Below, piece by piece: positions 4,934-38,980 of a stretch of DNA of 56,849 bases. The notes under the pieces were generated by a model that saw nothing but the letters and a program-made list of their open reading frames with translations, was not told where the DNA came from and searched no databases. The translations under genes and the position numbers were made by a program. The stretch is from the IMG/VR virus record IMGVR_UViG_3300025108_000058, positions 1-56,849 of that record; one strand, written 5' to 3'. Positions within the stretch are counted from its first letter, which is position 1. Each line of letters opens with the position of its first letter. This DNA comes from a virus. Lineage: Duplodnaviria; Caudoviricetes.

Positions 4934-5238
4934 AAATTATTCTTAAAAAAATCCTTAGGGTGTATTCCTCTGTCATCTATGAATATATCTGCGTCAAAAG
5001 GTTTAAAGTAAAGGTGGTGGTATTTACATCCCCAACTTTCGAGCTGAGCTTCAGTGATAGGTCTATAATAAGCTTCTCCTCTACCGCTTTTGTTTCCTCT
5101 AGCTGTATAGTATATTATAGTGTGACCTTCGTCATACATTTTATTAATCTTTGCTATTCTATCTTCGAAAGGTTTTCTGCCTATTACAGGTCCTTCTTCT
5201 TTGCAGATAGTGTCATCAATGTCTATTACGTACTTCAT
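4930..5238 (-). CDS. HAD-family phosphatase (capsule biosynthesis BcbF-like)
   Basis: DIDDTI motif I, YTARG, KP, IDDR. Confidence 0.8.
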   Translation of the reverse strand: MKYVIDIDDTICKEEGPVIGRKPFEDRIAKINKMYDEGHTIIYYTARGNKSGRGEAYYRPITEAQLESWGCKYHHLYFKPFDADIFIDDRGIHPKDFFKNNL

Positions 5239-7603: not shown

Positions 7604-8382
7604 TTAGTGTACCAGTCTTGCCAGTATTTTGTCATTATTTCAAACTCATCAGGGACAAATAAGTCTAAGTCTTGCGGACAACCTTCTTTAAGTAGTATAC
7701 ATGGAGGTGCTGTACCGAAATACGGTGTAATACCATAATCACGAAAGTACTCATGCATTAGAGTACCTGGTCCCATTACGTGTATGTTCTTTTTATTGTA
7801 AATATTGTAGTCTTCAATTCCTTCTTGCCTGTAGAAATACAAATTAGAAAGTAAATCCATAGAAAAAGAATTACTGAGAAATAAAATATCATTAACGTTG
7901 TACATGTGATATTCTAAATCCATTACTCCACCGTGAGATGAATGAATAACATTATTCTCTAAATGAGGAACTTTGAAAGTCTTATTAGGGTGAAATAAAA
8001 TATCTGGTCTAGATTTCACTACTATGTCGTATATAAAATTATTTTCTATTTCGTAATCCCTCTTTAATTCTAAAGATTTGGCAAAACTGTAAAATAGTGA
8101 ACTCCAATGATCGTTTCCTCTAAAAAGATTTTGTTCTCTAGAATCTACAGACAGACCTTTTAGGTCGTATCTAACTTTAAAAGAATCTAATTCTTGTTGT
8201 GCTACTTGTCGTTGTTGATACTCTTGTGTAACTCCTGGTCTATCCCAACTGTAAGTCCACGTATGTGCAAAATAATCTACCTGTACGTGTTCTTTATTGG
8301 CTGTAGTCCAAAACCATTTCTGGTTTTCTACTCCCATTTCCCATTGTCTTAATTGACCGCTTAAGCATACAGCTATTCTCAT
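7600..8382 (-). CDS. Putative glycosyltransferase
   Basis: MRIAVCLSGQLR, DYFAHTW, YDIVVKSRPD; glycan cluster context. Confidence 0.55.
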   Translation of the reverse strand: MRIAVCLSGQLRQWEMGVENQKWFWTTANKEHVQVDYFAHTWTYSWDRPGVTQEYQQRQVAQQELDSFKVRYDLKGLSVDSREQNLFRGNDHWSSLFYSFAKSLELKRDYEIENNFIYDIVVKSRPDILFHPNKTFKVPHLENNVIHSSHGGVMDLEYHMYNVNDILFLSNSFSMDLLSNLYFYRQEGIEDYNIYNKKNIHVMGPGTLMHEYFRDYGITPYFGTAPPCILLKEGCPQDLDLFVPDEFEIMTKYWQDWYTK

Positions 8383-8840
8383 AATACTGGTTTTAAAAAC
8401 GTTTGATCAAAATCTTTCATCCTTACTAATCTAGCTCTATGATTGAGAAGATTGCCGTAGATAGTTGCATCTGCTCTATTTTGATATCCAATTATAGGAA
8501 GCATATAAGAATCACAAATAAAAAAATCAGAGTTAATTTTATTCTTAAGGTATTCTCCGTGGTGTTTTACATCGTCTACGTATACTTGTTTATGGTCGAA
8601 TTTAAATTTAGGTAGACGTTTAATGATGGAAGATAACGTAAATAAATCAATAGTATCTGAGGTTATTATTATATGTGCATTATATAGTTGATCAGATTTA
8701 AATTGAAACTTATTTATGTCATGTACTATAGTTTCTATGCTACCTTCGTACCTGTCTATATTACTAGGCACTTCGATGTCTAAAGGTTTTTTAGATATTA
8801 ATGTATACCTACCGTTTCTAATTGGAAGAGAATATTTCAT
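8379..8840 (-). CDS. Hypothetical protein
   Basis: 153-aa ORF overlapping its neighbours in an operon-like arrangement. Confidence 0.6.
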   Translation of the reverse strand: MKYSLPIRNGRYTLISKKPLDIEVPSNIDRYEGSIETIVHDINKFQFKSDQLYNAHIIITSDTIDLFTLSSIIKRLPKFKFDHKQVYVDDVKHHGEYLKNKINSDFFICDSYMLPIIGYQNRADATIYGNLLNHRARLVRMKDFDQTFLKPVL

Positions 8841-10944: not shown

Positions 10945-11723
10945 CTGTAGTCGTATTTTAACAAGTGCATACCGTTACCTGAGTAATCTCTAGCCTTAAG
11001 TGGGGTTGTTTCTTCAAAATTTGTTGATATATAGATTGCATCTCCCTTAGTATCAAAACCATTATCTTTAAACTGTTCATAATCGTTAAACGCTAATTTA
11101 ATATCATTTTCAGACATAGTAGCTTCTTGAATATGTAGTAAGCTGATGTCTCCTGTGTAAACACATTGGAATACTTGTGGTGTATCGCCATCTTCGTTTG
11201 GTAATCCAGTAGCAGTCCCGCACCACATAAGTGCTTTCGTATAATCAATCATACCGTTTACTGCACATGAATTAGCACCAATACCGGGTATATCAATAGT
11301 TACTTCATTATTATATTTTCTGATAATTACGTTGTAGGTACCGTCAAATTCAGGCTCTACCATTAAGGATGCTTTAGCTACTCTATCTTTAGATGAATCC
11401 GGATCTTCATCCCAGTTAGGATTTTCCCACCATTCATACTCTAAGTGGTGTTTTACTAAATTAGTCTCATCAATAAACGTAGTCAAAAATAATCCACAGT
11501 GTTTACCATTTTTACCAAAAATACACTGTTTAACGTACACAGTTGTATTGTAAAACGGATCTTCTTTACGATCTTCTAAAAGTTCATATATGTTATCAAG
11601 ATCTGGTTTAAATCTAATTAATGCTGTAAAGTCATTTACTAACATTTGATGTGTGTGATTCTGTCTTACTCCATGTCTATCGATGTCATGAAATAAATAA
11701 GTGTAGTCTTTATGTAACCTCAT
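10932..11723 (-). CDS. LamG/concanavalin-A-like domain protein
   Basis: DFTALIRFKP start strand, YTGDIS, and ARDYSGNGMH (compare LMDLSGNNNDG in 14598..16022). Confidence 0.5.
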   Translation of the reverse strand: MRLHKDYTYLFHDIDRHGVRQNHTHQMLVNDFTALIRFKPDLDNIYELLEDRKEDPFYNTTVYVKQCIFGKNGKHCGLFLTTFIDETNLVKHHLEYEWWENPNWDEDPDSSKDRVAKASLMVEPEFDGTYNVIIRKYNNEVTIDIPGIGANSCAVNGMIDYTKALMWCGTATGLPNEDGDTPQVFQCVYTGDISLLHIQEATMSENDIKLAFNDYEQFKDNGFDTKGDAIYISTNFEETTPLKARDYSGNGMHLLKYDYRWIS

Positions 11724-13180
11724 TATATTGTTATTGCTTGTGTAAAATGATAAAATTCTTCTAGTTCAGGGAAAGTTTTACAGAAATCTGTACCTCTTCT
11801 TGCATCATGAGCTTTGAAATATCTTCCAAAATCTCTCTGTTGTCTCAATATAGCTTCAGGATCTTTAAATTTAGAGACCATCCAATCGTATGTTCTTTTA
11901 ATTTTCTGTACTTCGACATCAGAATAACCAATTAGTTTATGATCAAATTTTGGTATCCCAAGATAATCCATATATAGTACAGTGTCCCATAATATTGGTG
12001 CAAAATCTCCTTCTGGTAATACCTGTACTGTTTGATGTATAGGATGTCTGAGGTATGAGCTATCTAAGAATACAGCAGATACCCAGTATCTATCTGAGGA
12101 TCCGTATGTTTCTTTAAGCTTGTATATTCCGTCGACTAAAGGCTTGTAAGAAGTAACAGATAAAGCATTAAAGGTAGACATTACAGTAATGTTTACTCTA
12201 GGACATGCAGTAAGTATTTTATTCATATTTGCCCAGAATCTGTTAAATTCAAGACCGTTTCTGATATACTCTGCTCTTTCACCCCATGCATCTACGGAAG
12301 TAAAGATAATAAATTCATTAACTCTTCCTTCGTCTTCTATTCTTTTTATTTTTTCTATTAATTTATCAACTAAATTATCAGGTACTCCTAGATTAGAATT
12401 AATAGCTAAGTTTAGTTTCTTATTAGGGTTAGGTTGTTCTATAATATAATCTAATATCTTCCAAGTATCTTTTGATAGTAACGGTTCTCCTCCGGTAATT
12501 CTAAAGGTATGTAAGTCTCTATAGAGATCAGGCCACCATTTCCAAAATGCTTCTACATATGGATTGTGTTCTGTGTGATGTATAGGCATTTTGCCATTAG
12601 AAATCAATCCTTGAAGATCATTAAAGTTATCTTGAGTAGGGTAAGGACCGTGTTTTTTAGCCTCTTCAACCCACTTTGATGAAAACGATGGACCGCAGTA
12701 TGAACATTTAAAATTACATAGATTAGAAAACGATACCTCGACATATTTTGGGTTATAATCTTCTCTCCATCCTAAATTTTTAATTTCATTAAAGTATGGT
12801 TTAGACCAAGACTCATTAGATTTGAATACTCTATCAGAAAACTGAGGAGAATTATCTTCAACGTTCCAGCAGTAATCACATTCAGCAGGTCTTTTACCTT
12901 CTAGCATCTCTTTCCTCTTCATTTTCTTAAACTTGGTATTATGAAGTGCTGAAGGATTACGTTTTAGTTCATGTAATGGTATTTTATGAGTAGCAGGGTG
13001 ATGACAAGAGTGCGTTTGACCCATGTGTAGATGTATAGTAGTTTGAGTCCATTTAGCTAAACACATACCACATCCAACACCATCTAATTTTTCCTTTGTA
13101 GTGGCATAATCGTGGTTACCGAGTAGAATTTTTCTATGCTCTTTTTCTTTTGCTAAAGCATCATTTTGTTCACTTATCAT
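11723..13180 (-). CDS. Twitch/SPASM-domain radical SAM protein
   Basis: CNFKCSYC radical SAM motif, ITGGEPLL, N-terminal CLAKW...SCHH...CDYCW auxiliary cluster ligands. Confidence 0.88.
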   Translation of the reverse strand: MISEQNDALAKEKEHRKILLGNHDYATTKEKLDGVGCGMCLAKWTQTTIHLHMGQTHSCHHPATHKIPLHELKRNPSALHNTKFKKMKRKEMLEGKRPAECDYCWNVEDNSPQFSDRVFKSNESWSKPYFNEIKNLGWREDYNPKYVEVSFSNLCNFKCSYCGPSFSSKWVEEAKKHGPYPTQDNFNDLQGLISNGKMPIHHTEHNPYVEAFWKWWPDLYRDLHTFRITGGEPLLSKDTWKILDYIIEQPNPNKKLNLAINSNLGVPDNLVDKLIEKIKRIEDEGRVNEFIIFTSVDAWGERAEYIRNGLEFNRFWANMNKILTACPRVNITVMSTFNALSVTSYKPLVDGIYKLKETYGSSDRYWVSAVFLDSSYLRHPIHQTVQVLPEGDFAPILWDTVLYMDYLGIPKFDHKLIGYSDVEVQKIKRTYDWMVSKFKDPEAILRQQRDFGRYFKAHDARRGTDFCKTFPELEEFYHFTQAITI

Positions 13181-14601
13181 AATTTTATATTTATCATTTT
13201 AGCCCAGGGCGTGAATTTTTCTTCTCCTACAATTTCAAACTGCAGTTGTTTTATACCGTCTCCTTTATAGTTAATTTTTCCTTGTTGCATTTGTGTAACG
13301 TATCTTTTTTCATTTCTTGCTGTAGTTTCTCCTTTTGCCCATTTGCCGTTTACTAGTCCTTCATCTTTATGAGGTAAACATCTAAATCTACCGCTAATTC
13401 TATGAGGTATAATAGAGTTTGGTACGATAATGTCTTCTTGTAGCATTTCTACATCAGTAGCTTCATAACCTGTTTTAGGTTCATTAAAGTCTAAATCTAA
13501 CACCCTATTGCCTACCGGTATTGAAAGATTCAAAGTATTAACTTCCTCTGGTTTTAAACATCTATTCCAAGCAAACACTTTAGCAATATCCCCCTTAAAA
13601 AAACCATGTATCTTATCAGGAAACGATGGGGAGTGTCCCAGATAAATATCTTGTAATCCATAACTTTTAAGATTACTGTCCCATTTTAAAGGTGAAGGGC
13701 TTCCGTAACCTGCTTTTGAGTCTACTTCTGTACCGTTGAGATATAAATGAGATAATTTTTCATACTTATCAAACGTAGCTGTTACCCAGCTCCATTGATC
13801 AGCATATCTTTTGATCCACATATAGTGGTGTTTATTAAAATTGTTCCAGTAAGTTAAAGAAATAGCTCTAGAATTATTAAAACTAATACCGTAATCGTAT
13901 CCGGGTATTCTAAAAATAGGATGTTCTATGTACTTAATTTCAGCATCACCAATCAAAAATATACCGGTCTTATGTTTTTGGTGTTGATTTCTAACCAACA
14001 TAGATATAGAATGGTCGCCTGAGGTTAATCCTCTTAGTTTACGAGTAAAAGGTATTTTTATTTTTGATGAATCTCCGTTAAATCTAGCAAATTTTTGTTG
14101 TTCTGGTTTGTCTATATCTAAATAAGTAACGTTTGTGAGTCCTTCTAAGTGACATCTCCAGAATAAATCATCATCTTCCATACCCCAATCCCAATAGTCG
14201 TTTGAATAACCATTAGTAGCCTCTAAATGTTCTTTGGAAAATACTACTGCTCCACCAAAGTACTCATGATATTTCAACCCATAGTCCATTTGAGATATAT
14301 TAGTAGCGATATGTCTTGGAAATTCTCCTGGATGGCTATAATCAGCCCCTCCGTTTTGTTCAGGAATCATATCTATGTCATGAAAACAAACATAATCACA
14401 GCCGTCTTCTATTGCAATTTTAGCTCCAATATTCTTTGTAGCACCTCTGTTAAATAGTTTATCGTCAACTTGATGAATAAAGTACATTTGAAAATCAATC
14501 CCTTTTGACTTAAGGTACTTACCTGTCCTAGGAATAAACTCATGCATATGTATTTCTCTATCTCTGTATGGAATACATACTCCTAATTTATGTTTTGTCA
14601 T
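13177..14601 (-). CDS. GT7 (beta-1,4-galactosyltransferase-like) glycosyltransferase with inserted LamG domain
   Basis: PYRDR, FNRG, FHDIDM (DxD), YFGG, NGYSNDYWDWGMEDDDL; ARFNG...WSWVTATF...LYLNG...FKGDIAKV LamG; PHKD. Confidence 0.85.
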   Translation of the reverse strand: MTKHKLGVCIPYRDREIHMHEFIPRTGKYLKSKGIDFQMYFIHQVDDKLFNRGATKNIGAKIAIEDGCDYVCFHDIDMIPEQNGGADYSHPGEFPRHIATNISQMDYGLKYHEYFGGAVVFSKEHLEATNGYSNDYWDWGMEDDDLFWRCHLEGLTNVTYLDIDKPEQQKFARFNGDSSKIKIPFTRKLRGLTSGDHSISMLVRNQHQKHKTGIFLIGDAEIKYIEHPIFRIPGYDYGISFNNSRAISLTYWNNFNKHHYMWIKRYADQWSWVTATFDKYEKLSHLYLNGTEVDSKAGYGSPSPLKWDSNLKSYGLQDIYLGHSPSFPDKIHGFFKGDIAKVFAWNRCLKPEEVNTLNLSIPVGNRVLDLDFNEPKTGYEATDVEMLQEDIIVPNSIIPHRISGRFRCLPHKDEGLVNGKWAKGETTARNEKRYVTQMQQGKINYKGDGIKQLQFEIVGEEKFTPWAKMINIKL

Positions 14602-16022
14602 ATAGCTACTATTAAATGAGTGACATTACCGGTCTTAGTACTAGAATGTATATCAAACTCTAAATTACTTATTCCGTCTATACTAGGATTATGCCAGTTA
14701 TTTTTAACTTCATTATTAAATCTTAACTGGTTGTAACGTGTGTTAAGATCTTGCCAGGAATTATTACTAAATCCTGCATCTTCGTGATCTAGTAATTTAT
14801 ATCTACCTAATCGTCTAAAAGGTTTCGGTATTACCGTACTGCTTTCTAAATCAGTAGGAACCATTTCACAGTTCTTTATAACACCATCATTATTATTACC
14901 TGATAGATCCATTAGTTTGTATCCTTTGATAAACTTACCGTCGTAATAAGTCATTAATTTACCTGCACTTAAGTAATCGCCAAAATTTTGAGTTAGCCCG
15001 AAATATCTATTTTTACTTATTTCTACTATTTCTTTTGTGTCTAATTTATTTTTAAATATAGCTAGACTGTCTACCTTACCTTTATAGAATTTATTCTGTT
15101 CTTCTCTATTAGGATCAGAAACTCCTAGATACATAAACCTAGATTTTGAATAGTCAAGTATCTGAGTGTCTAAATTAACTTTACCAATCGATTCACCATT
15201 AATAAACCCTTCAATAACTTTATCTACACTATTATAAGAAACTACTGCAGTAACTTTCTTCATAGAATCTTCATCGGAATAGACCTGAATGTATTTTTTA
15301 CGTTTATTAAATAGTTCAACTTTATATCTGTTAAAACTATTCCATCCGATATTGAAATCATATCCAGGTATACCAAAAGCTGTGAAAAAATCATCTCTAG
15401 CATTTAAATCAAAATCAGTATGCTCAGGATGAAAACTAACAAAAATAGTAAAGTCCTTAGAAAAATTAATTGTATTTTTTATTTCAACATATGAATCTCT
15501 ACCGTTAAACTTTAAAGCTGCTGTTTTAGGTCCTGAGTTCTTAAGAAGAGTAGTGTCACAGGGTAGGTTATAATGTAAACATCTCCAAAGTAAATCATCA
15601 TCTTCAAATCCCCAACCCCAGTAGTTATTACTGTACCCGTTAATTTTTTCAAATAACTCTACTGGAAATAAAGTTACTCCACCAAAGTATTGGTCGAATA
15701 TAGGTTTATTTGTGTTATCTGATGAGACTAAAGTAGTAGCCATATGAATAGGTACGTTACTGTAGCTGTAATCTGCTTTAGATGGGAGCATATCTACATC
15801 GTGAAAACAAACATAATCACATTTTAGTTTCTTAGCTTCTAAAAAACCTATGTTAAGTAGTTTACCCCTATTAAAAAGCTTAGCGTCATCTTGCTCTACT
15901 ACAATTACTTTAAAATCGATTTCAGTTTTTCTTAAATACTCTTTTATCGATTGTTTAAATTCATAAAGTTGTGCGTATCTATTTCTATAAGGAACTACAA
16001 TACCAAGTTTATGCTTGGTCAT
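14598..16022 (-). CDS. GT7 (beta-1,4-galactosyltransferase-like) glycosyltransferase with inserted LamG domain
   Basis: PYRNR, FNRGKLLNIG, FHDVDM, YFGGV, NGYSNNYWGWGFEDDDL; LKFNGRDSYV...FING...YKGKVDSL...DLSGNNNDG LamG; LDHED. Confidence 0.88.
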   Translation of the reverse strand: MTKHKLGIVVPYRNRYAQLYEFKQSIKEYLRKTEIDFKVIVVEQDDAKLFNRGKLLNIGFLEAKKLKCDYVCFHDVDMLPSKADYSYSNVPIHMATTLVSSDNTNKPIFDQYFGGVTLFPVELFEKINGYSNNYWGWGFEDDDLLWRCLHYNLPCDTTLLKNSGPKTAALKFNGRDSYVEIKNTINFSKDFTIFVSFHPEHTDFDLNARDDFFTAFGIPGYDFNIGWNSFNRYKVELFNKRKKYIQVYSDEDSMKKVTAVVSYNSVDKVIEGFINGESIGKVNLDTQILDYSKSRFMYLGVSDPNREEQNKFYKGKVDSLAIFKNKLDTKEIVEISKNRYFGLTQNFGDYLSAGKLMTYYDGKFIKGYKLMDLSGNNNDGVIKNCEMVPTDLESSTVIPKPFRRLGRYKLLDHEDAGFSNNSWQDLNTRYNQLRFNNEVKNNWHNPSIDGISNLEFDIHSSTKTGNVTHLIVAI

Positions 16023-16215
16023 TTGATGAGCCTTTTGCTATAGTCATGAATTCGTGTAAGTAGAACTGTGCTCTTTCATCCCATTGTGAAAAATCTTTCT
16101 CTTCGAACCATAATGCTAATGCATCAGTAGATGCTGCAATTTTCTCTAATGCTTTTACTTTTCTTTCTTCTAGTAATAATGCTTCTTTTTCTTGATCGGT
16201 TAATTTACCTGCCAT
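16009..16215 (-). CDS. Small hypothetical protein
   Basis: 68-aa ORF in operon, overlapping downstream gene start. Confidence 0.65.
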   Translation of the reverse strand: MAGKLTDQEKEALLLEERKVKALEKIAASTDALALWFEEKDFSQWDERAQFYLHEFMTIAKGSSNDQA

Positions 16216-16220
16216 TTTTA

Positions 16221-17060
16221 TTAAATTTTAACTATTAAACTTCTTAACTTATCCCAGTACGGGTAATCATTATAATCAATATACGAAAAGTTTTTCAACT
16301 TTTCAACTAAATATTCCTTATTTTTTATGTCTATTTTCCAATCAGATCTTGCTATAGATCTGTACATTTTATTATATTCTTTATGAAAACTATAGTGAGT
16401 TTTTGTTTCTGCTACTTCTAATAGTCGTTGAAGAACAGAAGAGTCCCACTTAAAATGGTGGACTTGAGTAAAACAATCTTCTATAGGCATTCTATCAGGA
16501 TGTCTTTCACCCCAGCTAGTAGCGTAGTTAGCAAATCTTACGTAATGCTGTCCTGGTGTTACATCTACATATCCTTTCATTAACGTAACCTTGTTAGGGC
16601 AAGCTCCAGACATTGGATACCTAAAGAATCCTGCGTAGGGAAAAGTTTCATGCACATTAGTATCTGGTTTAACTTCTGGAAATGTTCCTTGAGGTCCTAT
16701 TCTGTCTAGAAATCCTCCAGTTACAAATTTATAGTCTTTTGTCTCACACTCTTCGACTATATCTCTTACGTCTCTAGGGTATACTTGTAGTTCATCATCG
16801 TCAGATACAATCCACCATTCATCGGCTTTAGTGCGTTTAAGTTTATTGTATAGTTCTGTTACTTTGTGCCAGTCATATTTAGGTTCAGTAACTACCCTGA
16901 AGGGTGTAATACCTAATTCTTCTATTTCTTCTACTATATTATCATCTTCAGATTGCCGATATACTACTACATACATATTATCAACCATATTTCTATAGTG
17001 ATTTAACATATGAGGTAACATATGTGTATTTCTTCCGACTACTGTAGCTAAGTTAAGCAC
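16221..17060 (-). CDS. GT2-like glycosyltransferase
   Basis: LPHMLNHY, WWIVSDDDEL, PGQH, VHHFKW motifs. Confidence 0.72.
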   Translation of the reverse strand: MLNLATVVGRNTHMLPHMLNHYRNMVDNMYVVVYRQSEDDNIVEEIEELGITPFRVVTEPKYDWHKVTELYNKLKRTKADEWWIVSDDDELQVYPRDVRDIVEECETKDYKFVTGGFLDRIGPQGTFPEVKPDTNVHETFPYAGFFRYPMSGACPNKVTLMKGYVDVTPGQHYVRFANYATSWGERHPDRMPIEDCFTQVHHFKWDSSVLQRLLEVAETKTHYSFHKEYNKMYRSIARSDWKIDIKNKEYLVEKLKNFSYIDYNDYPYWDKLRSLIVKI

Positions 17061-17814
17061 GCTGTACTATTGTTAATCCTGTTGATTGAGGTTTTGATGG
17101 GTGTATACCTGTATTAAAAAAATCAAATGTCTTCCATTCAGGTCCTAATTCTTTTATAAATTTTGGTGGACCGTCAAAAAATTCATAATACTCTTTTTCA
17201 TCTTCTGTGATAATCATTTCTTTTTGGTACCTTTCATCAGTATCGTGAATAGCGATCATACCTTTTGGATTTAACAGTTGAGAGTATAGTTCAAAATCTT
17301 TTTTTACGTCTTCGTAAGAATGTCCTGCATCAATATAAAGAAAGTCGAATTTAATATCCTTCTTTACAAAATAATTGTAATATGCGTTTTCTGTAGTTTC
17401 TTTTATGAATTTAGGAATAAACTGGTATCTAAAGAAAGAATGAGGTTCTTCATAGTCTACTTTGCCTCCTACTCCGTTACATGCATCAACTAAATAAGTA
17501 ATTCCTATATCTCCATAATTAATATCGCTATCTCCATCAAATATTTCTGTGTCATGTAAATCTAATCTAGCTTGAGTCATTATTCTCGGTATAAATCCTC
17601 CTCCTGATCCTAAACAGCATAGTGTTTTATATCTCATAGCAACTATAATAGAGTGAACTAAATGACCATCTCCTAAATGGTAGTTAGTAGCACCGTGAGT
17701 CCATCTATAGGGTACTTGTCTAAACTCTTTTACCGGTTTACCGTTTATGTCTTTTGACATAACTGGATTGTTAGTAAGAAATTGTCTAATGTATTCTTTG
17801 TTGTAAATTTTCAT
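17053..17814 (-). CDS. SAM-dependent methyltransferase (Methyltransf_24-like)
   Basis: CLGSGGGF, FLYIDAGHSYEDVKKDF, GMIAIHDT. Confidence 0.8.
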   Translation of the reverse strand: MKIYNKEYIRQFLTNNPVMSKDINGKPVKEFRQVPYRWTHGATNYHLGDGHLVHSIIVAMRYKTLCCLGSGGGFIPRIMTQARLDLHDTEIFDGDSDINYGDIGITYLVDACNGVGGKVDYEEPHSFFRYQFIPKFIKETTENAYYNYFVKKDIKFDFLYIDAGHSYEDVKKDFELYSQLLNPKGMIAIHDTDERYQKEMIITEDEKEYYEFFDGPPKFIKELGPEWKTFDFFNTGIHPSKPQSTGLTIVQRA

Positions 17815-17815
17815 A

Positions 17816-18670
17816 TTAACGTTTTTCTATATGTGCTAAGTTAAGATCAGTGAAATTAATGCATCTTGTCAAATGTTGTACTTCTCTATCGTAATTCTGG
17901 TCTGCTTTATCTGCTAATATCCATCTTTTTAATGGTCCGTAATGTTTAACGTATACTTCAGATTCATATATAGGCCATATACCTCTGTCATGATGTTCAC
18001 CCCATTCCCATGCATCGCAGTCCCAGTATGTAGCTACTAAAGACTTAAACTCTACTGCTCTCATATCAAACATATGTCTAAGAAATAGTTGTTCTGCAAA
18101 AATTAAATATTGAGAGTTAGGAACATCCATTGCAGTAAATTCTTCCATCAATTTAATACTCCCTGCAGCATAATCTTGAATAAACTTTGGATCAGGTAAT
18201 TGTAAAAAACTAACATTAACTGATTCAGTTTGCCATCTAGGGGTATATGAAAGTTTTCTGACATAATCATCAACATAACCTGGATAGTATCCTTTACCGT
18301 TTTCGATATTATGAACATAAAACTTATTAGGATCTAAATAAGTCTTTATAGGAGAGAATATATGTAAATCATTATCTACCATAATACACGGTTCAGTTTG
18401 TAAAGAAAGTACTTCGAGTTTTGCTGCTGCCCAAAAGATTTTTCTGTTTATATTATAGGTAGGTTTATAAAGTATTACTTCATCCCAAAAATGTAGTGTA
18501 TTAGTTAGTTTAAGCGTTTCTCTCGATAGTTCATCGCAATATAATATACATGTATCGTCCGGGTAGAATTTCTTCCATTGTCTAATAGATGCTATAAGTA
18601 TGAGTGTGTAAAGTTTACTGTAGAAACTAGCTTCACCTTTGACATTATCTAAAACCCAAATTACTCTCAA
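17816..18670 (-). CDS. Putative GT-A nucleotide-diphospho-sugar transferase
   Basis: TTG start; FWAAAKL, MVDNDL (DxD), NVSF, FAEQ, HYG; first gene of glycan island. Confidence 0.6.
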   Translation of the reverse strand: MRVIWVLDNVKGEASFYSKLYTLILIASIRQWKKFYPDDTCILYCDELSRETLKLTNTLHFWDEVILYKPTYNINRKIFWAAAKLEVLSLQTEPCIMVDNDLHIFSPIKTYLDPNKFYVHNIENGKGYYPGYVDDYVRKLSYTPRWQTESVNVSFLQLPDPKFIQDYAAGSIKLMEEFTAMDVPNSQYLIFAEQLFLRHMFDMRAVEFKSLVATYWDCDAWEWGEHHDRGIWPIYESEVYVKHYGPLKRWILADKADQNYDREVQHLTRCINFTDLNLAHIEKR

Positions 18671-19742: not shown

Positions 19743-21548
19743 TTATTTATTTTCGAGCTCTTTTACTTTAGCAGAAAGCTCTTTAACTGCTTCTATCAAT
19801 ACTGCTGTTAGTTTTTCATATTTAACAGCTTTATATCCATTATCTCTATTTTCAACTATTTCTGGAAGTACTTTTTCTACATCTTGTGCTATAACTCCTA
19901 TATCATGTCCTTCGTATACTTCTTGTTTATCATTCCAATCGAATTCTACTCCTCTTAAACTTTCTACTTTATCTAAAGCATTAGGTATATTCGATACATT
20001 GTCTTTTAATCTTTCATCTGAAGAATAGAATGCTACAATATCATTTGCTGCTCTAATTACACCAGATGTACCAGGTGCTGCTGTATCTACTCCAATACTA
20101 TCGAATCTTACATCACTAGTTGTTGCAACTGCTTGTCCAATCGCTATGTCGTTTGCATTAACTGTTACTCCTGTACCTGCTCCGATGTTAAATGTTCTAT
20201 CAGATCCTAGAGTACCTCCTCCTGTTAGTCCTGCTCCTGCTGTTAAATCTACTGCTGCTAAAGCGTAAGAAGCTGTTGCTGCATTTATTGCTTCAAATCT
20301 CACATTACCTGAACCTGATATTTGAGCAGCTGTTAGTCCTTTTATTAATGCTAAAGCAGTTACTTCACTATCCATTAAAGCTCCTGCTGCTGTAACATTT
20401 GTAGTATCTGTTACGTCTGCACTTGATTCAATTCCGTCTAATTTAGTTCCATCTGCATCAACATCTCTTCCGTCTACTGTTCCTGTTGTAATAATATTAC
20501 CTGCTATTCTTACAGGTGCATCAAAATTAAATCTTGAATTAGCATGATTCCAAGTCATAGCTTTGTCAGCGCCATCTATCGTTATACCAGCTCCATCTGC
20601 TGCAGCACTATCGGCTGCTCCAGAAGCAATTAAAATATTTTTATCTTCTACATTTAAAGAAGCTACTTGTAATTCTGTTTTAGTACCTAACACATTTAAG
20701 TTACCGTTTATAGTAACATCATTAGTAATTGCTAATCCGCTAAATGTAGGAGTATCTCCTGATTGTAGTCCTGAATCAACATCTGTATTTACTCCATTAG
20801 TAGCAAGTCTAACTGTACCTTGAGAAGGAGAACTAAGAACTGATGCTGAAACAATACCAGCTCCTGATTTTAACGCATATGATGCTGTTGCAGCATTTAT
20901 TGCTTCGAATCTTACATTACCTGAACCTGATATCTGTGCTGCAGTTAAGCCCTTAATTAATGCTAGCGCTGATACTTCTGAATCCATTAATGCTCCAGCA
21001 GCAGTTACATTTGTAGTATCCGTTACATCGGCTGAGGCTTCTATTGCATCTAGCTTTGTTTTATCTCCATCTGCAAAAGCACCTTCCGATGGTTTTACTT
21101 GTAATGTAGATATTGTTACACCTTTAATACCTGCAAGGTCAGTAACTTCTGAATCCATCACGGCTCCAGCTGATGTTACATTTGCAGTGTCTGTTACATC
21201 TGCACTTGCTTCAATTGCATTTAGCTTTGTATGATCTGCGTCTGTAAATACGTTAGAGTCAGAAGCAGCTTCTACTGCTGCTCTAATCTGTGCATCTGTC
21301 TGGTCTGCTGTAGCACTAGCCTCTATTGCGTCTAATTTAGACTTAAGAGTGTTAGTGAAATTATTCTGAGTTAGTGCACCGTCACCAACACCAATTTGAG
21401 CAGAAGAAGATATTAACGTTGGTTTACCTGTTATGTTTGCAAACGCAACCTGGTCAGCTGTTATATCTCCATCAAAGGAGCCAACAAACGATCCTGAAAA
21501 GGAACCGGTCGCTATTGCATTAGTCATTAAGGGGCTATCTATTCTCAT
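19743..21548 (-). CDS. Fibre protein with C-terminal peptidase S74 intramolecular chaperone
   Basis: SSDERLKDNV...WND...IGVIAQDVEKVLPE...KAVKYEKL..VLIEAVKEL; four KL(D/N)(A/G)IE(A/S)SA repeats. Confidence 0.88.
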   Translation of the reverse strand: MRIDSPLMTNAIATGSFSGSFVGSFDGDITADQVAFANITGKPTLISSSAQIGVGDGALTQNNFTNTLKSKLDAIEASATADQTDAQIRAAVEAASDSNVFTDADHTKLNAIEASADVTDTANVTSAGAVMDSEVTDLAGIKGVTISTLQVKPSEGAFADGDKTKLDAIEASADVTDTTNVTAAGALMDSEVSALALIKGLTAAQISGSGNVRFEAINAATASYALKSGAGIVSASVLSSPSQGTVRLATNGVNTDVDSGLQSGDTPTFSGLAITNDVTINGNLNVLGTKTELQVASLNVEDKNILIASGAADSAAADGAGITIDGADKAMTWNHANSRFNFDAPVRIAGNIITTGTVDGRDVDADGTKLDGIESSADVTDTTNVTAAGALMDSEVTALALIKGLTAAQISGSGNVRFEAINAATASYALAAVDLTAGAGLTGGGTLGSDRTFNIGAGTGVTVNANDIAIGQAVATTSDVRFDSIGVDTAAPGTSGVIRAANDIVAFYSSDERLKDNVSNIPNALDKVESLRGVEFDWNDKQEVYEGHDIGVIAQDVEKVLPEIVENRDNGYKAVKYEKLTAVLIEAVKELSAKVKELENK

Positions 21549-21567
21549 TGTGTATACTTTAATTTAT

Positions 21568-21575
21568 TATAAATA
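21568..21575 (-). promoter_or_regulatory. Putative late promoter TATTTATA
   Basis: Recurrent intergenic 8-mer upstream of 21548 start. Confidence 0.6.
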
Positions 21576-21593
21576 TAGGTTTTTATACATTAT

Positions 21594-22367
21594 TTACTTT
21601 TTGACTATAACCTTTCCGGTAAAACTGGAATCAAATTCTAACTGCACTTCATTTGATGAAGATGCAGAGATTAATCCCGGTAGTACTTGTAATTTATTTG
21701 AGTCATATATTTGCACTATTGGATAGTCTTCACCTAAGTTATGTGTTATAGTGTAGGCTGTATTCCCAGTAATACTTTCCTCGTATCTTGTAAGTAATTC
21801 TATTTGTGCAGATCCAGATAAAACACCTGTTCCGGATAGTACAGCTGATCCAGATGCTAGGTGACCTCCTTTTGCAACAACCACTCTTCCTGATGTAGAT
21901 GAATCAAAAGCTAAATCTACTCTGTTAACGGTTGCTGTAGTTATAGAGGAGGGTATAATTAGTTGATCACTATCATTATAGACTGATACTATTACATCTT
22001 TAGTACTAAAATTATGAGTAACTTGTTTTGAAGTTACATTAGTAAAGGTATCTGATACTGTTGCGTTTTCTACTACAGTAGTTGTAACGTTAGTTAATCC
22101 AGAGCCATCTCCGACAAATGCAGTCCCTGTAACACTACCTGTAATGTTAACTGAACCTGTAAAATAATGATTGTCTGATAACTCATCTCCAAATTTGTTA
22201 GAGCCTGAGGTAAATAGTATAGATTGAGAAACTATATTGGTAGTAAGTTTGTTTGCTACTATATCACCAGATACTACTAATGCAGATGCTGTTATAGCGT
22301 TCTCGACATAGAGATTGTTTAAATTAGCAGATGATCCGCTTAATATAATTTTTTTCCAGTTTGGCAT
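21594..22367 (-). CDS. Putative fibre/virion decoration protein
   Basis: N-terminal WKKIILSGS shared with upstream fibres; two THN(F/L)...V.(V/I)Y(N/D) beta domains; SGS-rich. Confidence 0.65.
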   Translation of the reverse strand: MPNWKKIILSGSSANLNNLYVENAITASALVVSGDIVANKLTTNIVSQSILFTSGSNKFGDELSDNHYFTGSVNITGSVTGTAFVGDGSGLTNVTTTVVENATVSDTFTNVTSKQVTHNFSTKDVIVSVYNDSDQLIIPSSITTATVNRVDLAFDSSTSGRVVVAKGGHLASGSAVLSGTGVLSGSAQIELLTRYEESITGNTAYTITHNLGEDYPIVQIYDSNKLQVLPGLISASSSNEVQLEFDSSFTGKVIVKK

Positions 22368-22373
22368 ACCTCT

Positions 22374-22424
22374 TACTATGGTTGGTTACTCTTTCGAGCC
22401 CACTTCCCTTTCGGGCCAATAATA
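22374..22424 (-). ncRNA. Candidate structured cis-regulatory RNA (three-way junction with two GAAA tetraloops)
   Basis: Minus strand UAUUAUUGG-CCC GAAA GGG-AAGUGG-GCUC GAAA GAGU-AA-CCAACCAUAGUA; GC-rich island in an AT-rich spacer between promoter and ATG. Confidence 0.6.
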
Positions 22425-22432
22425 CATTTATA

Positions 22433-22440
22433 TATAAATA
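22433..22440 (-). promoter_or_regulatory. Putative late promoter TATTTATA
   Basis: Recurrent 8-mer, immediately upstream of the structured leader of 21594..22367. Confidence 0.6.
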
Positions 22441-22468
22441 TAAGGGAAAAAAGATTAATATCCTACTA

Positions 22469-22699
22469 TTATTCGGAATTAGCTAGTTTTGTAAGTTTAG
22501 CCATAATCTGATAGAATTGTTCAAACTCTGCTCCGGTGTAGTTTGCCTGTCTTAGTTTATTTACTAGAAAAGCAGCTTCGGTGGGACTAAAAAGGGAAGA
22601 ATGCTTCCTTTGTTTTTTTACTTCCTTAGGAAGCGGCTCCTCTTTATTGTCTTTTAATTTACTGTGTCTCAAAATTCCCATTAAAAACCTTTTTAACAT
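22469..22699 (-). CDS. Small hypothetical protein
   Basis: 76-aa ORF; true start may be MGIL at 22681. Confidence 0.6.
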   Translation of the reverse strand: MLKRFLMGILRHSKLKDNKEEPLPKEVKKQRKHSSLFSPTEAAFLVNKLRQANYTGAEFEQFYQIMAKLTKLANSE

Positions 22700-22705
22700 T
22701 TTTCA

Positions 22706-25477
22706 TTAGCTATAAATCCATATACTTTCATCTGACTCATTTATGTGAGTAGTACCTGTTCCTTGGAACGTTGGTGCTGAAGATGGATTACTATTAGATG
22801 TTTCTATATTTCCTATCTTAGACTCTACTGATGCACTAACTGCTGATTGTTTAACATCCTGTGCAAATCCGAATACGTTAGAAGGACTATCCCAGAATAT
22901 ACCTGAACCAGTGTTAGCATTATTAGTACCGTCTCCTGATGGATCTGATCCTCCAAATATAATACCTACATCTCCTCCAGTACTACCTGAGTTAAGTAGA
23001 ATCATTCTATCTTCTACATTCAAGTTAGTTACTTGTGCTTCGAATGTATTACCTGTTACTGTTAAATCCCCAGATACTGTCAAGTTAGTAAATTGAGGTG
23101 AATCGCCTGCTTGTAAACCTAAGTCTACATCTGTATTCACACCATTTATAGCTAATCTTGCTGTACCTTGTGATGGTGAAGAAAGAACTGATGCTGATAT
23201 TAATGTTGGTTTGTTAGTAATATCATCAAAGTCTGTTGATATACTGTCTATTCTTGCTCCTAGAGCATTACTAGCTGAAACGAATGATCCTGATATGTCT
23301 GCTGCTAATTGAGCTGATCCTGATACCACATCGTTTGCGATGCTAATAGTTATTTCATTATCTGATACTGTAGTAGTAATTGAATTGTCTCCTGTGAACG
23401 TTAAAGTCTCACCAGTAGTGTACGTATCGTTAGTTCCACTATCGGCTGATAATGTTATAGTACTTGTAATATTGTCGATTCTTGTACCTAAAGCATTACT
23501 TGCTGATACATAAGAACCAGAAATACCTGCTGCAGTTAGTGCTTTAACAGTTGCTATTTCTGCTAGTTCTGAATCCATTAAGGCTCCGGCAGCGGTTACG
23601 TTTGCTGTATCTGTTACGTCGGCTGATGCTTCTATTGCATTTAATTTAGAATGATCTGCATCTGTAAAGACATTAGAATCTGTTGCTGCTTCTACAGCTG
23701 TTCTAATCTCTGCATCTGTTTGATCTCCAGTAGCACCATCTTCAACATTTAAAAATGTTCTAACATCTGATGCTGATCCTGATATTACATTATCTCCAGT
23801 TGTATTAAGGAAAGCTCCATCTATTTGTGCTGAAGAAGATATAACTCCCTCTGCACTAAGCTTAGCTTTAACACCGTCTGTGAAAGTACTAGATGCTGTA
23901 GCTAATTCAATATTATCTGCATTAGCAACGATACCGTTATTTGCTGATACTACATTAAATGTTCTATTTGATGCTAAAGTTCCTCCACCTGTTAAACCTG
24001 TTCCTGCTGTAAAGTCTACAGCTTCTAAAGTATCTACTGCTCCTTCTGCTGTTCTTAGGTCAGATGCTAGAGAAGCACTTGCTGCAACAAATGAACCTGA
24101 TATATCTGCTGCTATTTGAGTTGAACCTGAAAGTAATCCTTGTCCTTTTAGGAAGGCTACGTCTACTTCCGATCCTGATTGTCCTCCAATCCATTTATTG
24201 TTAGTTCCGTCCCATAGTAAAGAACCTGATTTAGGACCATTTGCATCATTTATATGTAAACCTCCTAATGCAGCTCCTGTTCCGTTTAGAGCTACGATAT
24301 TATCTCCTATATCTAAAGTAGTTGAATCTATAGTCGTAGTAGTCCCTTGAACTTCTAAATCACCAGATAAAGTAAGGTTTGTAAATGTTGGAGAGTCTCC
24401 TGCTTGTAAGCCTAGATCTACATCTGTGTTAACACCGTTGAGTGCTAATCTTGCTGTACCTTGAGAAGGTGAGCTTAATACCGATGCAGAAACGATTCCT
24501 AATCCTAATTTAGTTGCGTAAGAAGAAGTAGCTGCATTTAAAGCTTCAAATCTAACATTACCGGATCCTGATATATCTGCTGCTATTTGAGCAGAAGAGG
24601 AAATTGTTCCGTCTGCAACAACTCCTGTTAATCCTGATCCATCTCCTTGAAAAGAACCAGAGAATCCAGACCCAGATACTGTTGTGAATATATTGTTTCC
24701 AACGAATGTATTTGAACCAGTGCTAGCAAAACCTAAGTTAACTAACTTATCATCTAATCCAGATATATTATCTGCTGATATAGATCCTGATACAATATGA
24801 CCACCTCTAGCGGCAACTATATACCCTGAAGTGCTTGAATCGAATGTTACTACTGCTCTGTTAGTTGTACTTAAAGTAACACTGGCAGGAATAATTTGTA
24901 CATTACTGTCGTTATATACTACTACATTAACGTTTCTAGAGTCGAAGTTGTGATCTAAATTAACTGATGTTTGATTCGTAAAGTCACTTTTTACTGTAGC
25001 AGCTTGAGAAACTGTAATATTAGTTAAATTTGATCCATTCCCTTCAAAAGACCCTGAGAATGCTGATCCTGATACTATACCTGCTCCTAAATCTACTATT
25101 GCAGCGGCTGATAAAGATCCTGATATATCTGCTGCTAATTGAGCTGAACCAGAAACTACATCATCTGCTATACTAATTGATATCTTGTTATCACTAACTG
25201 TCGTTGTTATAGAATTATCACCTTCAAAAGTTAAAGTTTCTCCAGTTGTGTATGTATCATTAGTACCTGAATCGGCAGATAATGTTATAGTACTCGTGAT
25301 ATTATCTATTCTCGTTCCTAAAGCGGTACTTGCTGAAACAAAAGAGCCAGAAACGTCGGCTGCTATTTGAGCTGAGGATGATAAGGCGCCTTGGAAGACA
25401 CCTGTTATATTTCCATCAACTGCTAATGAACTAAGTTCACCTTGTGATCCACTAAAGAGTATTTTTTTCCAGGCCAT
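22706..25477 (-). CDS. Long fibre protein with shuffled repeat modules
   Basis: MAWKKILFSGS start; modules shared with 25501..27774 and 19743..21548; S/G/A/T-rich. Confidence 0.75.
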   Translation of the reverse strand: MAWKKILFSGSQGELSSLAVDGNITGVFQGALSSSAQIAADVSGSFVSASTALGTRIDNITSTITLSADSGTNDTYTTGETLTFEGDNSITTTVSDNKISISIADDVVSGSAQLAADISGSLSAAAIVDLGAGIVSGSAFSGSFEGNGSNLTNITVSQAATVKSDFTNQTSVNLDHNFDSRNVNVVVYNDSNVQIIPASVTLSTTNRAVVTFDSSTSGYIVAARGGHIVSGSISADNISGLDDKLVNLGFASTGSNTFVGNNIFTTVSGSGFSGSFQGDGSGLTGVVADGTISSSAQIAADISGSGNVRFEALNAATSSYATKLGLGIVSASVLSSPSQGTARLALNGVNTDVDLGLQAGDSPTFTNLTLSGDLEVQGTTTTIDSTTLDIGDNIVALNGTGAALGGLHINDANGPKSGSLLWDGTNNKWIGGQSGSEVDVAFLKGQGLLSGSTQIAADISGSFVAASASLASDLRTAEGAVDTLEAVDFTAGTGLTGGGTLASNRTFNVVSANNGIVANADNIELATASSTFTDGVKAKLSAEGVISSSAQIDGAFLNTTGDNVISGSASDVRTFLNVEDGATGDQTDAEIRTAVEAATDSNVFTDADHSKLNAIEASADVTDTANVTAAGALMDSELAEIATVKALTAAGISGSYVSASNALGTRIDNITSTITLSADSGTNDTYTTGETLTFTGDNSITTTVSDNEITISIANDVVSGSAQLAADISGSFVSASNALGARIDSISTDFDDITNKPTLISASVLSSPSQGTARLAINGVNTDVDLGLQAGDSPQFTNLTVSGDLTVTGNTFEAQVTNLNVEDRMILLNSGSTGGDVGIIFGGSDPSGDGTNNANTGSGIFWDSPSNVFGFAQDVKQSAVSASVESKIGNIETSNSNPSSAPTFQGTGTTHINESDESIWIYS

Positions 25478-25500
25478 CTATTATTTTATTATAATTATTA

Positions 25501-27774
25501 TTATTCTACGTATATGAATACATCTCCACTTCCGTCTACGAAAATGTTTCCGTCTTTTTGGTAATTTGCATCGTCATTTGCTAATGCTACAGCTGCTATT
25601 CTTGCATCTGCTGCAACTACATCTGTATTAGCATTTGCTCCAGCGTAGTCTAATGACCATCTGTTTGCTGTATCATCAAAGAATAATGCTGTTCCTTCTC
25701 CATTTGAAGAAGAATTTTGTGCTATTATACCTGAGTTACCAGAAGCTGATCCAGAATTAAGTAAGATAAATTTATCTTCTATATTTAAATCAGTTGAATT
25801 TATATTTGTTACTGTTCCATTTACATTTAAGTCTCCTGTTAGAGTTAAAGAAGCAAATGTTGGTGAGTCGCCAGTTTGTAAACCAGAATCTACATCCGTA
25901 TTAACACCGTTTGTAGCAAGTCTAACCGTACCCTGTGAAGGTGAACTTAATACCGATGCTGATACTATAGATGATCCTAGTACAGTTGCATATGAAGAAG
26001 TCGCTGCGTTTAAAGCTTCAAATCTAACATCGCCTGAACCAGATATCTGTGCTGCAGTTAACCCTTTAATTAAGGCTAATGCTGTTACTTCAGAATCCAT
26101 TAAAGCACCGGCTGCTGTTACATTAGTAGTGTCTGTTACATCTGCACTAGCTTCTATTGCGTCTAATTTAGTCTTGTCTCCATCTGCAAAAGCTCCTTCA
26201 GAAGGTTTAGCTTGTAAAGTAGAGATTGTTACTCCTTTAATACCGGCTAAATCCGTTACTTCTGAATCCATTAAGGCTCCAGCGGCTGTTACATTAGCTG
26301 TATCAGTTACATCTGCAGAAGCTTCGATTGCATTCAGTTTAGAATGATCTGCATCTGTAAATGTATTTGAGTCAGTTCCTGCTTCTACTAGTGCAACTAC
26401 TTGAGCTGATCCTGATACAACACCGTTGGCAATACTAATTGCAATTTGGTTATCAGATACTGTAGTAGTAATTGAATTATCTCCTGTGAAGGTTAAAGTT
26501 TCTCCAGTTGTATATGTATCATTGGTTCCACTGTCAGCAGATAATGTAATAGTACTAGTAATATTGTCTATTCTACTTCCTAATGCATTACTTGCAGAAA
26601 CAAACGATCCGCTTATATCTGTTGCAATTTGACCTGAACCTGAAAGTAATCCTTGTCCTTTTAAGAAAGCGACATCAACTTCAGATCCTGATTGACCTCC
26701 AATCCATTTGTTATTTGTTCCGTCCCATAAAAGTGAACCTGATTTAGGTCCGTTAGCATCGTTAATATGTAAACCACCTAAAGCGGCTCCTGTACCATTT
26801 AATGCTACTATATTGTCTCCTATATCTACTGTAGTAGAATTAATAGTTGTTGTAGTACCTTGTACTTCTAAATCTCCTGTAAGAGTTAATCCTACGAATG
26901 TTGGTGAAGCACCTGTTACTAAACTTTGATTTAATGCTTTAACATCTGCAATGCTAGTTAATTCACTATCCATTAATGCTCCTGCAGCAGTTACGTTAGT
27001 CGTATCTGTTACATCTGCACTAGCCTCTATAGCATTTAATTTACTATGATCTGCATCAGTGAATACATTTGAGTCAGTAGCTGCTTCAACAGCTGCTCTT
27101 ATTTCTGCATCTGTCTGGTCTGCAGTAGCACTTGCTTCAATAGCATTTAATTTGCTATGATCTGCATCTGTAAATGTATTTGAATCTGTTCCGGCTTCAA
27201 CTAAAGCAACTACTTGAGCTGATCCAGATACTAAATTAGCACCGAGATTTACTATTGCTGCTGCTGATAAAGATCCTGATATGTCTGCTGCTATTTGAGC
27301 AGAACCAGATAATACATTATCTCCTGTTGTATTTAAAAAGTCTCCGTCTATTTGTGCTGATGAGGATATAACTCCTTCTGCACTTAATTTAGCTTTTACT
27401 CCATCAGTAAATGTACTTGATGCAGTAGCTAGTTCGATATTGTCTGCGTTAGCGACTATACCGTTATTTGCGGATGCTACGTTAAGAGTTCTATTAGCTG
27501 CTAAAGTTCCGCCTCCAGTTAAACCTGTTCCAGCTATTACTTGTGTACCTAATATAGATCCTGTCTGTGTGTTTAATGATTCTATTCTTGTGCTTAAACT
27601 TCCGGTTTCGGTATTTAAAGCTTCAAACCTTACATTACCGGAGCCAGAAATATCGGCAGCCAATTGTGCGGAGGATGAAACAATAGATTGCGCGGTAGAA
27701 GTTAAGTAGTTTGCATCGTTATTTAACGCGGATATTGCTGATCCGGATACGATGACTTTTTTCCAACTTGCCAT
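25501..27774 (-). CDS. Long fibre protein with shuffled repeat modules
   Basis: MASWKKVIVSGS start; four KL(N/D)AIEASA repeats; C-terminal IEDKFILLNSGS...VFIYVE like that of 22706..25477. Confidence 0.75.
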   Translation of the reverse strand: MASWKKVIVSGSAISALNNDANYLTSTAQSIVSSSAQLAADISGSGNVRFEALNTETGSLSTRIESLNTQTGSILGTQVIAGTGLTGGGTLAANRTLNVASANNGIVANADNIELATASSTFTDGVKAKLSAEGVISSSAQIDGDFLNTTGDNVLSGSAQIAADISGSLSAAAIVNLGANLVSGSAQVVALVEAGTDSNTFTDADHSKLNAIEASATADQTDAEIRAAVEAATDSNVFTDADHSKLNAIEASADVTDTTNVTAAGALMDSELTSIADVKALNQSLVTGASPTFVGLTLTGDLEVQGTTTTINSTTVDIGDNIVALNGTGAALGGLHINDANGPKSGSLLWDGTNNKWIGGQSGSEVDVAFLKGQGLLSGSGQIATDISGSFVSASNALGSRIDNITSTITLSADSGTNDTYTTGETLTFTGDNSITTTVSDNQIAISIANGVVSGSAQVVALVEAGTDSNTFTDADHSKLNAIEASADVTDTANVTAAGALMDSEVTDLAGIKGVTISTLQAKPSEGAFADGDKTKLDAIEASADVTDTTNVTAAGALMDSEVTALALIKGLTAAQISGSGDVRFEALNAATSSYATVLGSSIVSASVLSSPSQGTVRLATNGVNTDVDSGLQTGDSPTFASLTLTGDLNVNGTVTNINSTDLNIEDKFILLNSGSASGNSGIIAQNSSSNGEGTALFFDDTANRWSLDYAGANANTDVVAADARIAAVALANDDANYQKDGNIFVDGSGDVFIYVE

Positions 27775-38885: not shown

Positions 38886-38980
38886 TATAAAAATAATTTG
38901 TGGTTTCGTACGATTATTGAAATCGTAATATGAAGTTAGTTATAAGTTTTTAATACAGTATAAGTGACTGTATATTCTTA

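Follow-up and report, generated by a model that had tools for sequence, protein, structure and literature searches.

Small three-way junctions that regulate a gene from its leader are known from the S15-type ribosomal-protein leaders, which carry a conserved G-U step near the initiation region in the form of a G-U/G-C motif, are bound by protein and repress translation. The put RNA of phage HK022 consists of two stem-loops that lie right after a phage promoter and act in cis on terminators downstream. GP20-a (RF02991) and GP20-b (RF03003) are motifs from comparative genomics, placed no more than about 25 nt upstream of one phage gene class. T4-type phages themselves have the RegA, gp43 and gene 32 operators, of which the gene 32 operator is a 5′ leader pseudoknot followed by an unstructured A/U-rich spacer, an arrangement that is also stated in PMC10690425. 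The RNA element that we describe here lies in the leader of a fibre gene, likewise in a phage that appears to be T4-type, and together with its spacer it repeats the gene 32 layout: a compact fold at the 5′ end of the leader, an open A/U-rich stretch running into the AUG, and a single gene behind it. However, the element is a three-way junction and not a pseudoknot, and the gene is a late structural one, in contrast to an early or middle gene whose product binds DNA. Like GP20-a and GP20-b, it precedes one phage gene class at short distance, but no Rfam 15 model matches it in sequence or structure. It shares with put the two stem-loops behind a promoter; put, however, has no enclosing P1, and no terminator on which such an RNA could act is evident downstream of the element. 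From the S15-type leaders it differs in its step (G-U/C-G), in the lack of any Rfam ribosomal-leader match and in its gene, a fibre gene being unrelated to ribosome assembly.

The window, that is, the whole stretch of 56,849 nucleotides that was analysed, is an IMG/VR virus record that is 34% complete according to CheckV, has about 33% G+C and carries all its genes on the minus strand. Pfam recognizes in it a T4-type Gp23 capsid protein, a Gp20 portal protein, a Gp21 prohead protease and a T4-type terminase, and the capsid protein shares 69% identity with its counterpart in Flavobacterium phage vB_FspM_immuto (160 kb, genus Immutovirus). Judged by sequence, the window can be read as part of a distant T4-like phage of Flavobacteria. 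ARAGORN found no tRNA or tmRNA genes in the window. Between 19.7 and 27.8 kb lie four fibre-like genes full of internal repeats, three of which begin x-W-K-K-x-I-x-SGS; the fibre genes at 19743-27774 (minus strand) have many diverged internal repeats in common (families D1-D19), and the gene at 19743-21548 ends in a Peptidase_S74 intramolecular chaperone domain. The minus-strand block at 623-18670 encodes nucleotidyl- and cytidylyl-transferases, glycosyltransferases with Laminin_G_3, a radical-SAM protein and a methyltransferase. A module for sugar or glycan modification is one possible reading of this block, and its sole copy of the TATTTATA box is at 6758. A minus-strand ORF at 55206-56132 has a Zeta_toxin/AAA_33 P-loop kinase domain (E 2.8e-10) and sits among structural genes. 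The features of the fibre locus, in the order in which they are read, are as follows.

22706..25477, minus strand: paralogous fibre gene (start MAWKKILFSGS) that lacks the RNA element, the only copy detected in the window by the covariance model being the one at 22374-22424.
22469..22699, minus strand: SP-A, a conserved upstream neighbour (76 aa) whose basic N-terminus is disordered and which has a two-helix hairpin.
22433..22440, minus strand: TATTTATA box, a late-promoter-like 8-mer that is strand-specific and found upstream of starts.
22425..22432, minus strand: 8-nt AT-rich spacer, by its position the probable zone of transcription start.
22416..22424, minus strand: 5′ strand of P1, UAUUAU, a bulged U (22418) and GG; seven of the eight P1 pairs are compensatory.
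22406..22415, minus strand: P2 hairpin CCC-GAAA-GGG; alignment pair 14-24 is CG in 65 copies, UA in 22 and UG in 3.
22403..22405, minus strand: J2/3, AAG, invariant in 19/19 copies found through protein homology.
22383..22402, minus strand: P3, UGG-GCUC-GAAA-GAGU-(AA bulge)-CCA, with covariation in the family.
22382, minus strand: J3/1, a single A, invariant in 19/19 copies found through protein homology.
22374..22381, minus strand: 3′ strand of P1, CC-AUAGUA, which pairs with 22416-22424.
22368..22373, minus strand: 6-nt spacer AGAGGU, which with 22374 reads AAGAGG and resembles a Shine-Dalgarno (SD) sequence.
21594..22367, minus strand: fibre-like gene of 257 aa that starts MPNWKKIILSGSS and has virion-structural matches in PHROG.

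On the minus strand, the end of the 76-aa ORF (22469-22699) is thus followed by a 28-nt spacer, the TATTTATA box (22440-22433), 8 nt, the element itself (22424-22374), the six nucleotides AGAGGU and the ATG at 22367. A sequence-only reading of this DNA had described the element as a compact three-way junction with two GAAA-capped stems, and its letters, coordinates and distances proved exact; both stems are present, CCC-GAAA-GGG at 22415-22406 and GCUC-GAAA-GAGU at 22399-22388. It had also excluded a terminator, in agreement with our analysis: no T-run follows P1, P2 or P3, the terminator scan omits the element, and the GC-rich hairpin with U-tract of an intrinsic terminator is absent from it. 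The fold of this copy is unexceptional by energy. RNAfold gives an MFE of -12.8 kcal/mol with z = -1.20, 25 of 200 shuffles fold equally well, and within a 131-nt context z is -0.18. Since chance could explain a single such copy, the case rests on comparison. Within the window the element has no further copies or repeats; the CCCGAAAGGG motif occurs once against 0.34 expected, and a search of the window for an antisense partner of GGAAGUGGGC or GUAACCAACC matched only the complement of the element itself.

Relatives of the fibre protein were collected at 23 IMG/VR loci, 19 of which begin MPNWKK at the match, and the element lies directly upstream in 17 of these 19. The other two (L024 and L025) have an MPNWKK ORF without the element, which counts against a model of control through the leader; they also lack SP-A. 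A degenerate pattern of the core recovered at least 120 IMG/VR loci, and 4 of the 120 listed are GC-rich chance matches. The three-stem RNA precedes MP[NSA]W[KR]K fibre genes in at least 116 IMG/VR loci and in Flavobacterium phage immuto, where it stands before a “putative tail fiber-like protein” (MPSWKK) and has a compensated GA...UC closing pair. Among the 116 AT-rich pattern matches listed, 112 have an MP[NSA]W[KR]K ORF no more than 60 nt downstream, which agrees with the sequence-only placement of the element in the leader of a WKK-type fibre gene. The other 4 of the 116 listed have an insertion between the element and this ORF. In L031 it is a gene for an HNH endonuclease and in L083 a GIY-YIG-like one; in L036 and L097 it consists of about 115 additional nucleotides. 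The two homing-endonuclease genes sit exactly between the element and the fibre ORF (L031:143-385 and L083:1-384, both on the minus strand); the HNH match has a Pfam E value of 1.4e-4, and the GIY-YIG-like match, at 1.7e-4, is below the Pfam cut-off. Because the HNH ORF of L031 starts MPN, it has taken over the start of the fibre gene.

A covariance model built from 117 distinct copies among the matches listed finds one copy in the window (68 bits, E 2e-20; the next match has 11.6 bits), one copy each in 23 of the 25 longer loci and a single one in the complete genome of immuto (160 kb). A blastn search of 50,697 phage records with the element returned chance matches only, and tblastn of two N-terminal peptides returned only immuto isolates (4 records). 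A pattern scan of bacterial genome contigs gave no family member among the 120 matches listed, which were due to chance and mostly in GC-rich DNA. On these comparisons, the element is one copy of a widespread three-armed RNA of aquatic Flavobacterium-type phages. The searches further show it, among the loci and genomes examined, to be tied exclusively to the MP[NSA]W[KR]K fibre class, at one copy per genome.

The fibre proteins of phages with the same junction share less than 45% identity; the leader and the N-terminus are conserved and the fibre bodies are highly variable. In 19 of 20 long loci the box is immediately preceded by SP-A, which has 58-95 aa and the core ExxFLLxLIKxSxFKGExVExxYNLxxKLQ; SP-A is often followed by another small protein, SP-B, and a paralogous MA[ETN]WKK fibre gene precedes both. 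By a strict motif, SP-A or SP-B is found upstream in 76 of the 107 short loci listed; of the 31 that the motif missed, 22 were inspected again, and in 17 of these 22 a diverged SP-A or SP-B was recognized by eye. SP-A belongs to no Pfam or PHROG family, and the ESM Atlas holds only hypothetical viral clusters for it; its model has a pLDDT of 68.9, and the two-helix hairpin is too simple for a fold search. SP-A may be a chaperone of the fibre or the partner of the element, as a candidate by synteny only. SP-A and SP-B are weakly alike (hhalign E 0.003, probability 10%), and neither is in Pfam or PHROG. In one locus (L147) the two small proteins lie at 5442-5624 and 5698-5922.

To score the fold, we aligned the 117 copies with MAFFT (alignment A1) and compared the columns with the RNAfold topology. 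In A1, 96.3% of 2081 cells are paired, against 31-47% for slid registers, and 303 cells have changes on both sides, against 93 ± 7.5 in shuffles; none of 500 shuffles reaches 303. Because the core pattern used in the search fixes several core columns, the count was repeated on the 19 copies found through protein homology only (alignment A4). In A4, the paired share is 97.1% and compensatory change is seen at 12 of 18 pairs, which again none of 500 shuffles reaches; J2/3 (AAG), J3/1 (A), the G-U/C-G step and the closing pairs are all invariant in these 19 copies. The check that had been proposed on the upstream regions of homologs thus found the element conserved and its covariation strong. Individual pairs of A1 behave accordingly: pair 7-72 in P1 is AU in 65 copies, GC in 46 and UA in 5, and G33-U62 is GU in 116 of 117, while the distal pairs of P3 covary freely. 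Across the family alignment there are 205 G-U cells and 19 A-C cells, which identifies the sense strand as the strand that folds.

Two further columns define the register. Pair 11-69 of P1 is GC in 115 copies and AU in 2, and pair 31-66 is GC in 78 and AU in 39 with none unpaired, so that GG/CC closes P1 and UGG/CCA forms the base of P3; the RNAfold MFE structure has the same arrangement. The inner P1 first suggested (UUGG/CCAA) was therefore out of register, with no compensatory pair and 47 unpaired cells, and the GUGG:CCAU pairing that had been suggested as a switch or pseudoknot is the constitutive UGG/CCA base of P3; no conserved switch was found. The covariation and the excess of G-U cells uphold the idea of selection on RNA structure, but the two GAAA loops are local to the window copy and not a feature of the family. 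The P2 stem has 2-5 bp, its loop is GNRA or UNCG in most copies (GNRA in 68 of the 116 listed), and P3 is 18-36 nt long with a GAAA loop in 3 copies only. The mean MFE of the element over 112 leaders is -13.5 ± 3.2 kcal/mol. In this fold, an AU-rich P1 is closed by GG/CC, P2 joins it without a linker, the junction strands are AAG (J2/3) and a single A (J3/1), and P3 carries the invariant G-U/C-G step and a 2-nt bulge. The alignments show that the element is a selected sense-strand three-way-junction RNA with an invariant junction and a variable periphery.

The box in front of the element belongs to a recurrent signal. The window has 15 exact copies of TATTTATA on the gene strand and 3 on the opposite strand. 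For 12 of the 15 a listed ORF start follows within 120 nt, although upstream sequence of this kind makes up only 12% of the window; a thirteenth copy (36058) stands 4 nt before an internal ATG. The first bases of copies on the minus strand include 21575, 22440, 27812, 35702, 36058, 38988, 41329, 42430, 44360, 51098, 52875 and 56808, and late structural genes are preferentially preceded by it. TATTTATA is the reverse complement of the T4 late TATAAATA, here read in gene orientation. In the family, a TA[TC]TTAT box lies within 60 nt upstream of the element in 108 of 117 copies, and P1 starts 2-11 nt past the 8-mer in 93 of these 108. At least 11 of the 120 loci listed have a terminator hairpin and T-run directly before the box (e.g., GGTCC-TTCG-GGACC-TTTT), which fits a new transcription unit starting there. 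The T4 late promoter is described in PMC2988020 as an 8-bp TATA box that precedes the start by about one helical turn, with an AT-rich melted segment after it. Taking this layout together with our data on the box, we read TATTTATA as the putative late promoter of this lineage.

The leaders of ten of the 12 boxed genes are AT-rich and 4-30 nt long, several of them only 4-17 nt; the exceptions are the fibre gene with 65 nt and the gene at 38885 with 95 nt. The latter leader (38886-38980, minus strand, of the gene at 37734-38885) has two predicted hairpins with an MFE of -14.2 kcal/mol and z of -2.4, and 5 of 200 shuffles fold equally well. The contrast between 4-30 nt and 65 nt and the terminators before the box fit the position of the element as the leader of a late mRNA. 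RNA-library contigs (Logan; three metatranscriptome runs, small shares) cover the element, but the local rise in depth recurs in a DNA run, and since the contigs show neither transcription starts nor strand, this coverage is no measure of expression. A 939-nt RNA-library contig of a relative spans the upstream gene, the element and the fibre gene. A simple scan found no convincing terminator downstream of the element and no strong terminator between the upstream genes and the element in the window. A terminator-like hairpin with a T-run lies at 22595-22608 (minus strand), inside the SP-A ORF and about 150 nt upstream of the box.

Initiation in Bacteroidota is SD-poor, and these hosts work largely without initiation led by the Shine-Dalgarno sequence. 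Across the family the AACC end of the core lies 12-25 nt from the ATG, which places the end of P1 about 5-18 nt before the AUG. Only 25 of 113 copies have an SD-like 4-mer within -16..-4, which makes the AAGAGG of the window a minority trait, in line with Bacteroidota hosts. When 112 leaders were folded with the partition function, the stretch -15..-1 and the AUG came out mostly unpaired (probability 0.56-0.67, with means of 0.6-0.67 over -15..-1); the initiation region is thus predicted not to be sequestered, which counts against control through the leader. Watson-Crick complementarity between the apical loop of P3 and -4..+8 extends over 5 nt or more in 35 of 96 copies, as compared with 4.0% of shuffled loops; its commonest form is GGCAUA:UAUGCC. 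These copies belong mostly to one lineage with a long P3, and AUGCC is invariant, hence there is no covariation for this pairing. The loop of the window copy has no such complementarity, its longest run being 1 nt, so that pairing of the loop with the AUG cannot be the mechanism here and is an add-on of a subclass; a pseudoknot that would sequester the start codon was rejected for the window copy on the same ground. A UUGGC:GCCAA pairing with the start region shows no covariation at column 9 against the wobble base of the Pro codon. The subclass with loop-start pairing nevertheless argues that the family may act on translation, and the distance from P1 to the AUG together with this subclass would point to control of fibre translation.

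Based on these findings, we propose that the element is a cis-acting structured leader of the late fibre mRNA, whose junction is read by a trans factor and which controls translation or stability; we consider this proposal about evenly balanced between right and wrong. Where transcription starts, which kind of factor acts in trans and in which direction control runs, we infer as follows. Transcription would most likely start a few nucleotides past the TATTTATA box, and the 5′ end of the RNA would then be buried in P1. Because the peripheral stems vary and about 20 junction nucleotides are nearly invariant, the junction can be read as the recognition site of the trans factor, most likely a protein. 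The weak P1, which here ends 6 nt before the AUG, would, once stabilised, impede the loading of 30S subunits at an initiation region that is A/U-rich and SD-less, and could in this way limit or time fibre synthesis, and the paired 5′ end would also protect the message. By this scheme, the element probably sets the amount of fibre made. The open spacer and AUG and the loop-start complementarity of P3 are features that point to translation; against the scheme, the two homing-endonuclease genes and the two insertions of about 115 nt part the element from the fibre start, and the phages evidently survive.

Other readings must be weighed against this one. The element could be a passive 5′-terminal stabiliser or insulator that works without a partner, shielding the late fibre mRNA from 5′-end-dependent decay and preventing upstream sequence from base-pairing with the initiation region. 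P1 starts only a few nucleotides from the expected start, as deduced from the box, stable GNRA or UNCG loops cap P2 in most copies, and the initiation region stays open in predictions, all as such a device would have it. Yet a stem alone would suffice for that purpose, whereas about 20 junction nucleotides are invariant where the fibre proteins share less than 45% identity, and the gene of the far more abundant capsid protein has no such leader; we therefore hold this reading to be unlikely. The invariant junction might instead be a sensor, either an aptamer for a small molecule that reports host state or defence or a site that the fibre before its assembly, or its chaperone, recognises; we regard this as improbable. 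A riboswitch whose junction would bind a small molecule or ion reporting host state and gate fibre translation via P1 seems to us quite improbable. The pattern is aptamer-like, in that a conserved junction is surrounded by a variable periphery with P1 beside the initiation region, and sequence covariation does delimit a conserved, covarying domain of this kind. However, the element serves one structural gene, once per genome, outside any metabolic or transport context; only about 5 unpaired nucleotides are conserved, and no Rfam riboswitch matches. No conserved alternative pairing or expression platform was found either: the UUGG/CCAA and UUGGC:GCCAA alternatives have no covariation, nor does column 9 covary with the Pro codon, and P1 itself is left as a candidate platform.

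Action on transcription or processing, with the RNA modifying RNA polymerase as HK022 put does or marking a site where read-through transcripts are trimmed to a defined 5′ end, is in our view very improbable. Two hairpins do follow the promoter directly, and with no strong terminator upstream in the window, read-through transcripts would carry the element, as the 939-nt contig across the upstream gene, the element and the fibre gene might suggest. But that contig may be DNA carry-over, no duplex has the length for RNase III, the gene downstream is short, the next one has its own box at 21575, and the simple scan shows no convincing terminator for a polymerase to read through. We give least credence to the possibility that the element acts as DNA, as a recombination or homing target for the swapping of fibre modules, or that it is a self-cleaving ribozyme. 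The HNH (L031) and GIY-YIG (L083) genes inserted exactly behind the element would suit a DNA target, as would a conserved leader and N-terminus flanking highly variable fibre bodies. The compensatory changes and the 205 G-U against 19 A-C cells, however, speak for selection on the sense-strand fold and not on the sequence of duplex DNA, and conserved runs are no longer than 10 nt. As for a ribozyme, the hammerhead core has the consensus CUGANGA...GAAA...UH, whereas the junction strands of the element are 0 nt, AAG and A; no extended conserved single-stranded core is present, and no Rfam model of a small self-cleaving ribozyme (hammerhead, twister, pistol or hatchet) matches.

The sequence-only reading could not assign the element to a known RNA, and Rfam 15 gave no family for it. 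In the region 21800-23000 at E ≤ 10 the only match is an unrelated DdR4 elsewhere (E 6.9), fifteen homologous loci give none at E ≤ 1, and the whole window gives none at the gathering score. Full-text searches of the literature turned up no description of the motif. PMC10690425 is a catalogue with 8495 unnamed csRNA candidates from IMG/VR, and the motif may be listed among them without a name; the main text of that paper names no fibre-linked motif, and the core strings are absent from six of its supplementary files.

With more than 100 distinct copies, near-perfect covariation and an invariant junction, the element is among the better-supported uncatalogued RNA folds, and it is tied to a single class of host-recognition gene in abundant aquatic phages with Bacteroidota hosts. 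Since phage vB_FspM_immuto is in culture together with its host, Flavobacterium sp. LMO8, the function of the element is directly testable. The outcome could be a protein-RNA operator or a ligand-sensing RNA of a new kind, or a rule by which late T4-type messages are tuned in Bacteroidota, and the element can be used as a marker for the fibre module in viromes. If the junction were a sensor, the phage would couple the production of one receptor-binding fibre to conditions in the infected cell, and it would be the first case in which a virion component that determines host range is under riboswitch-like control or under feedback from assembly, and one widespread in aquatic phages of Bacteroidota.
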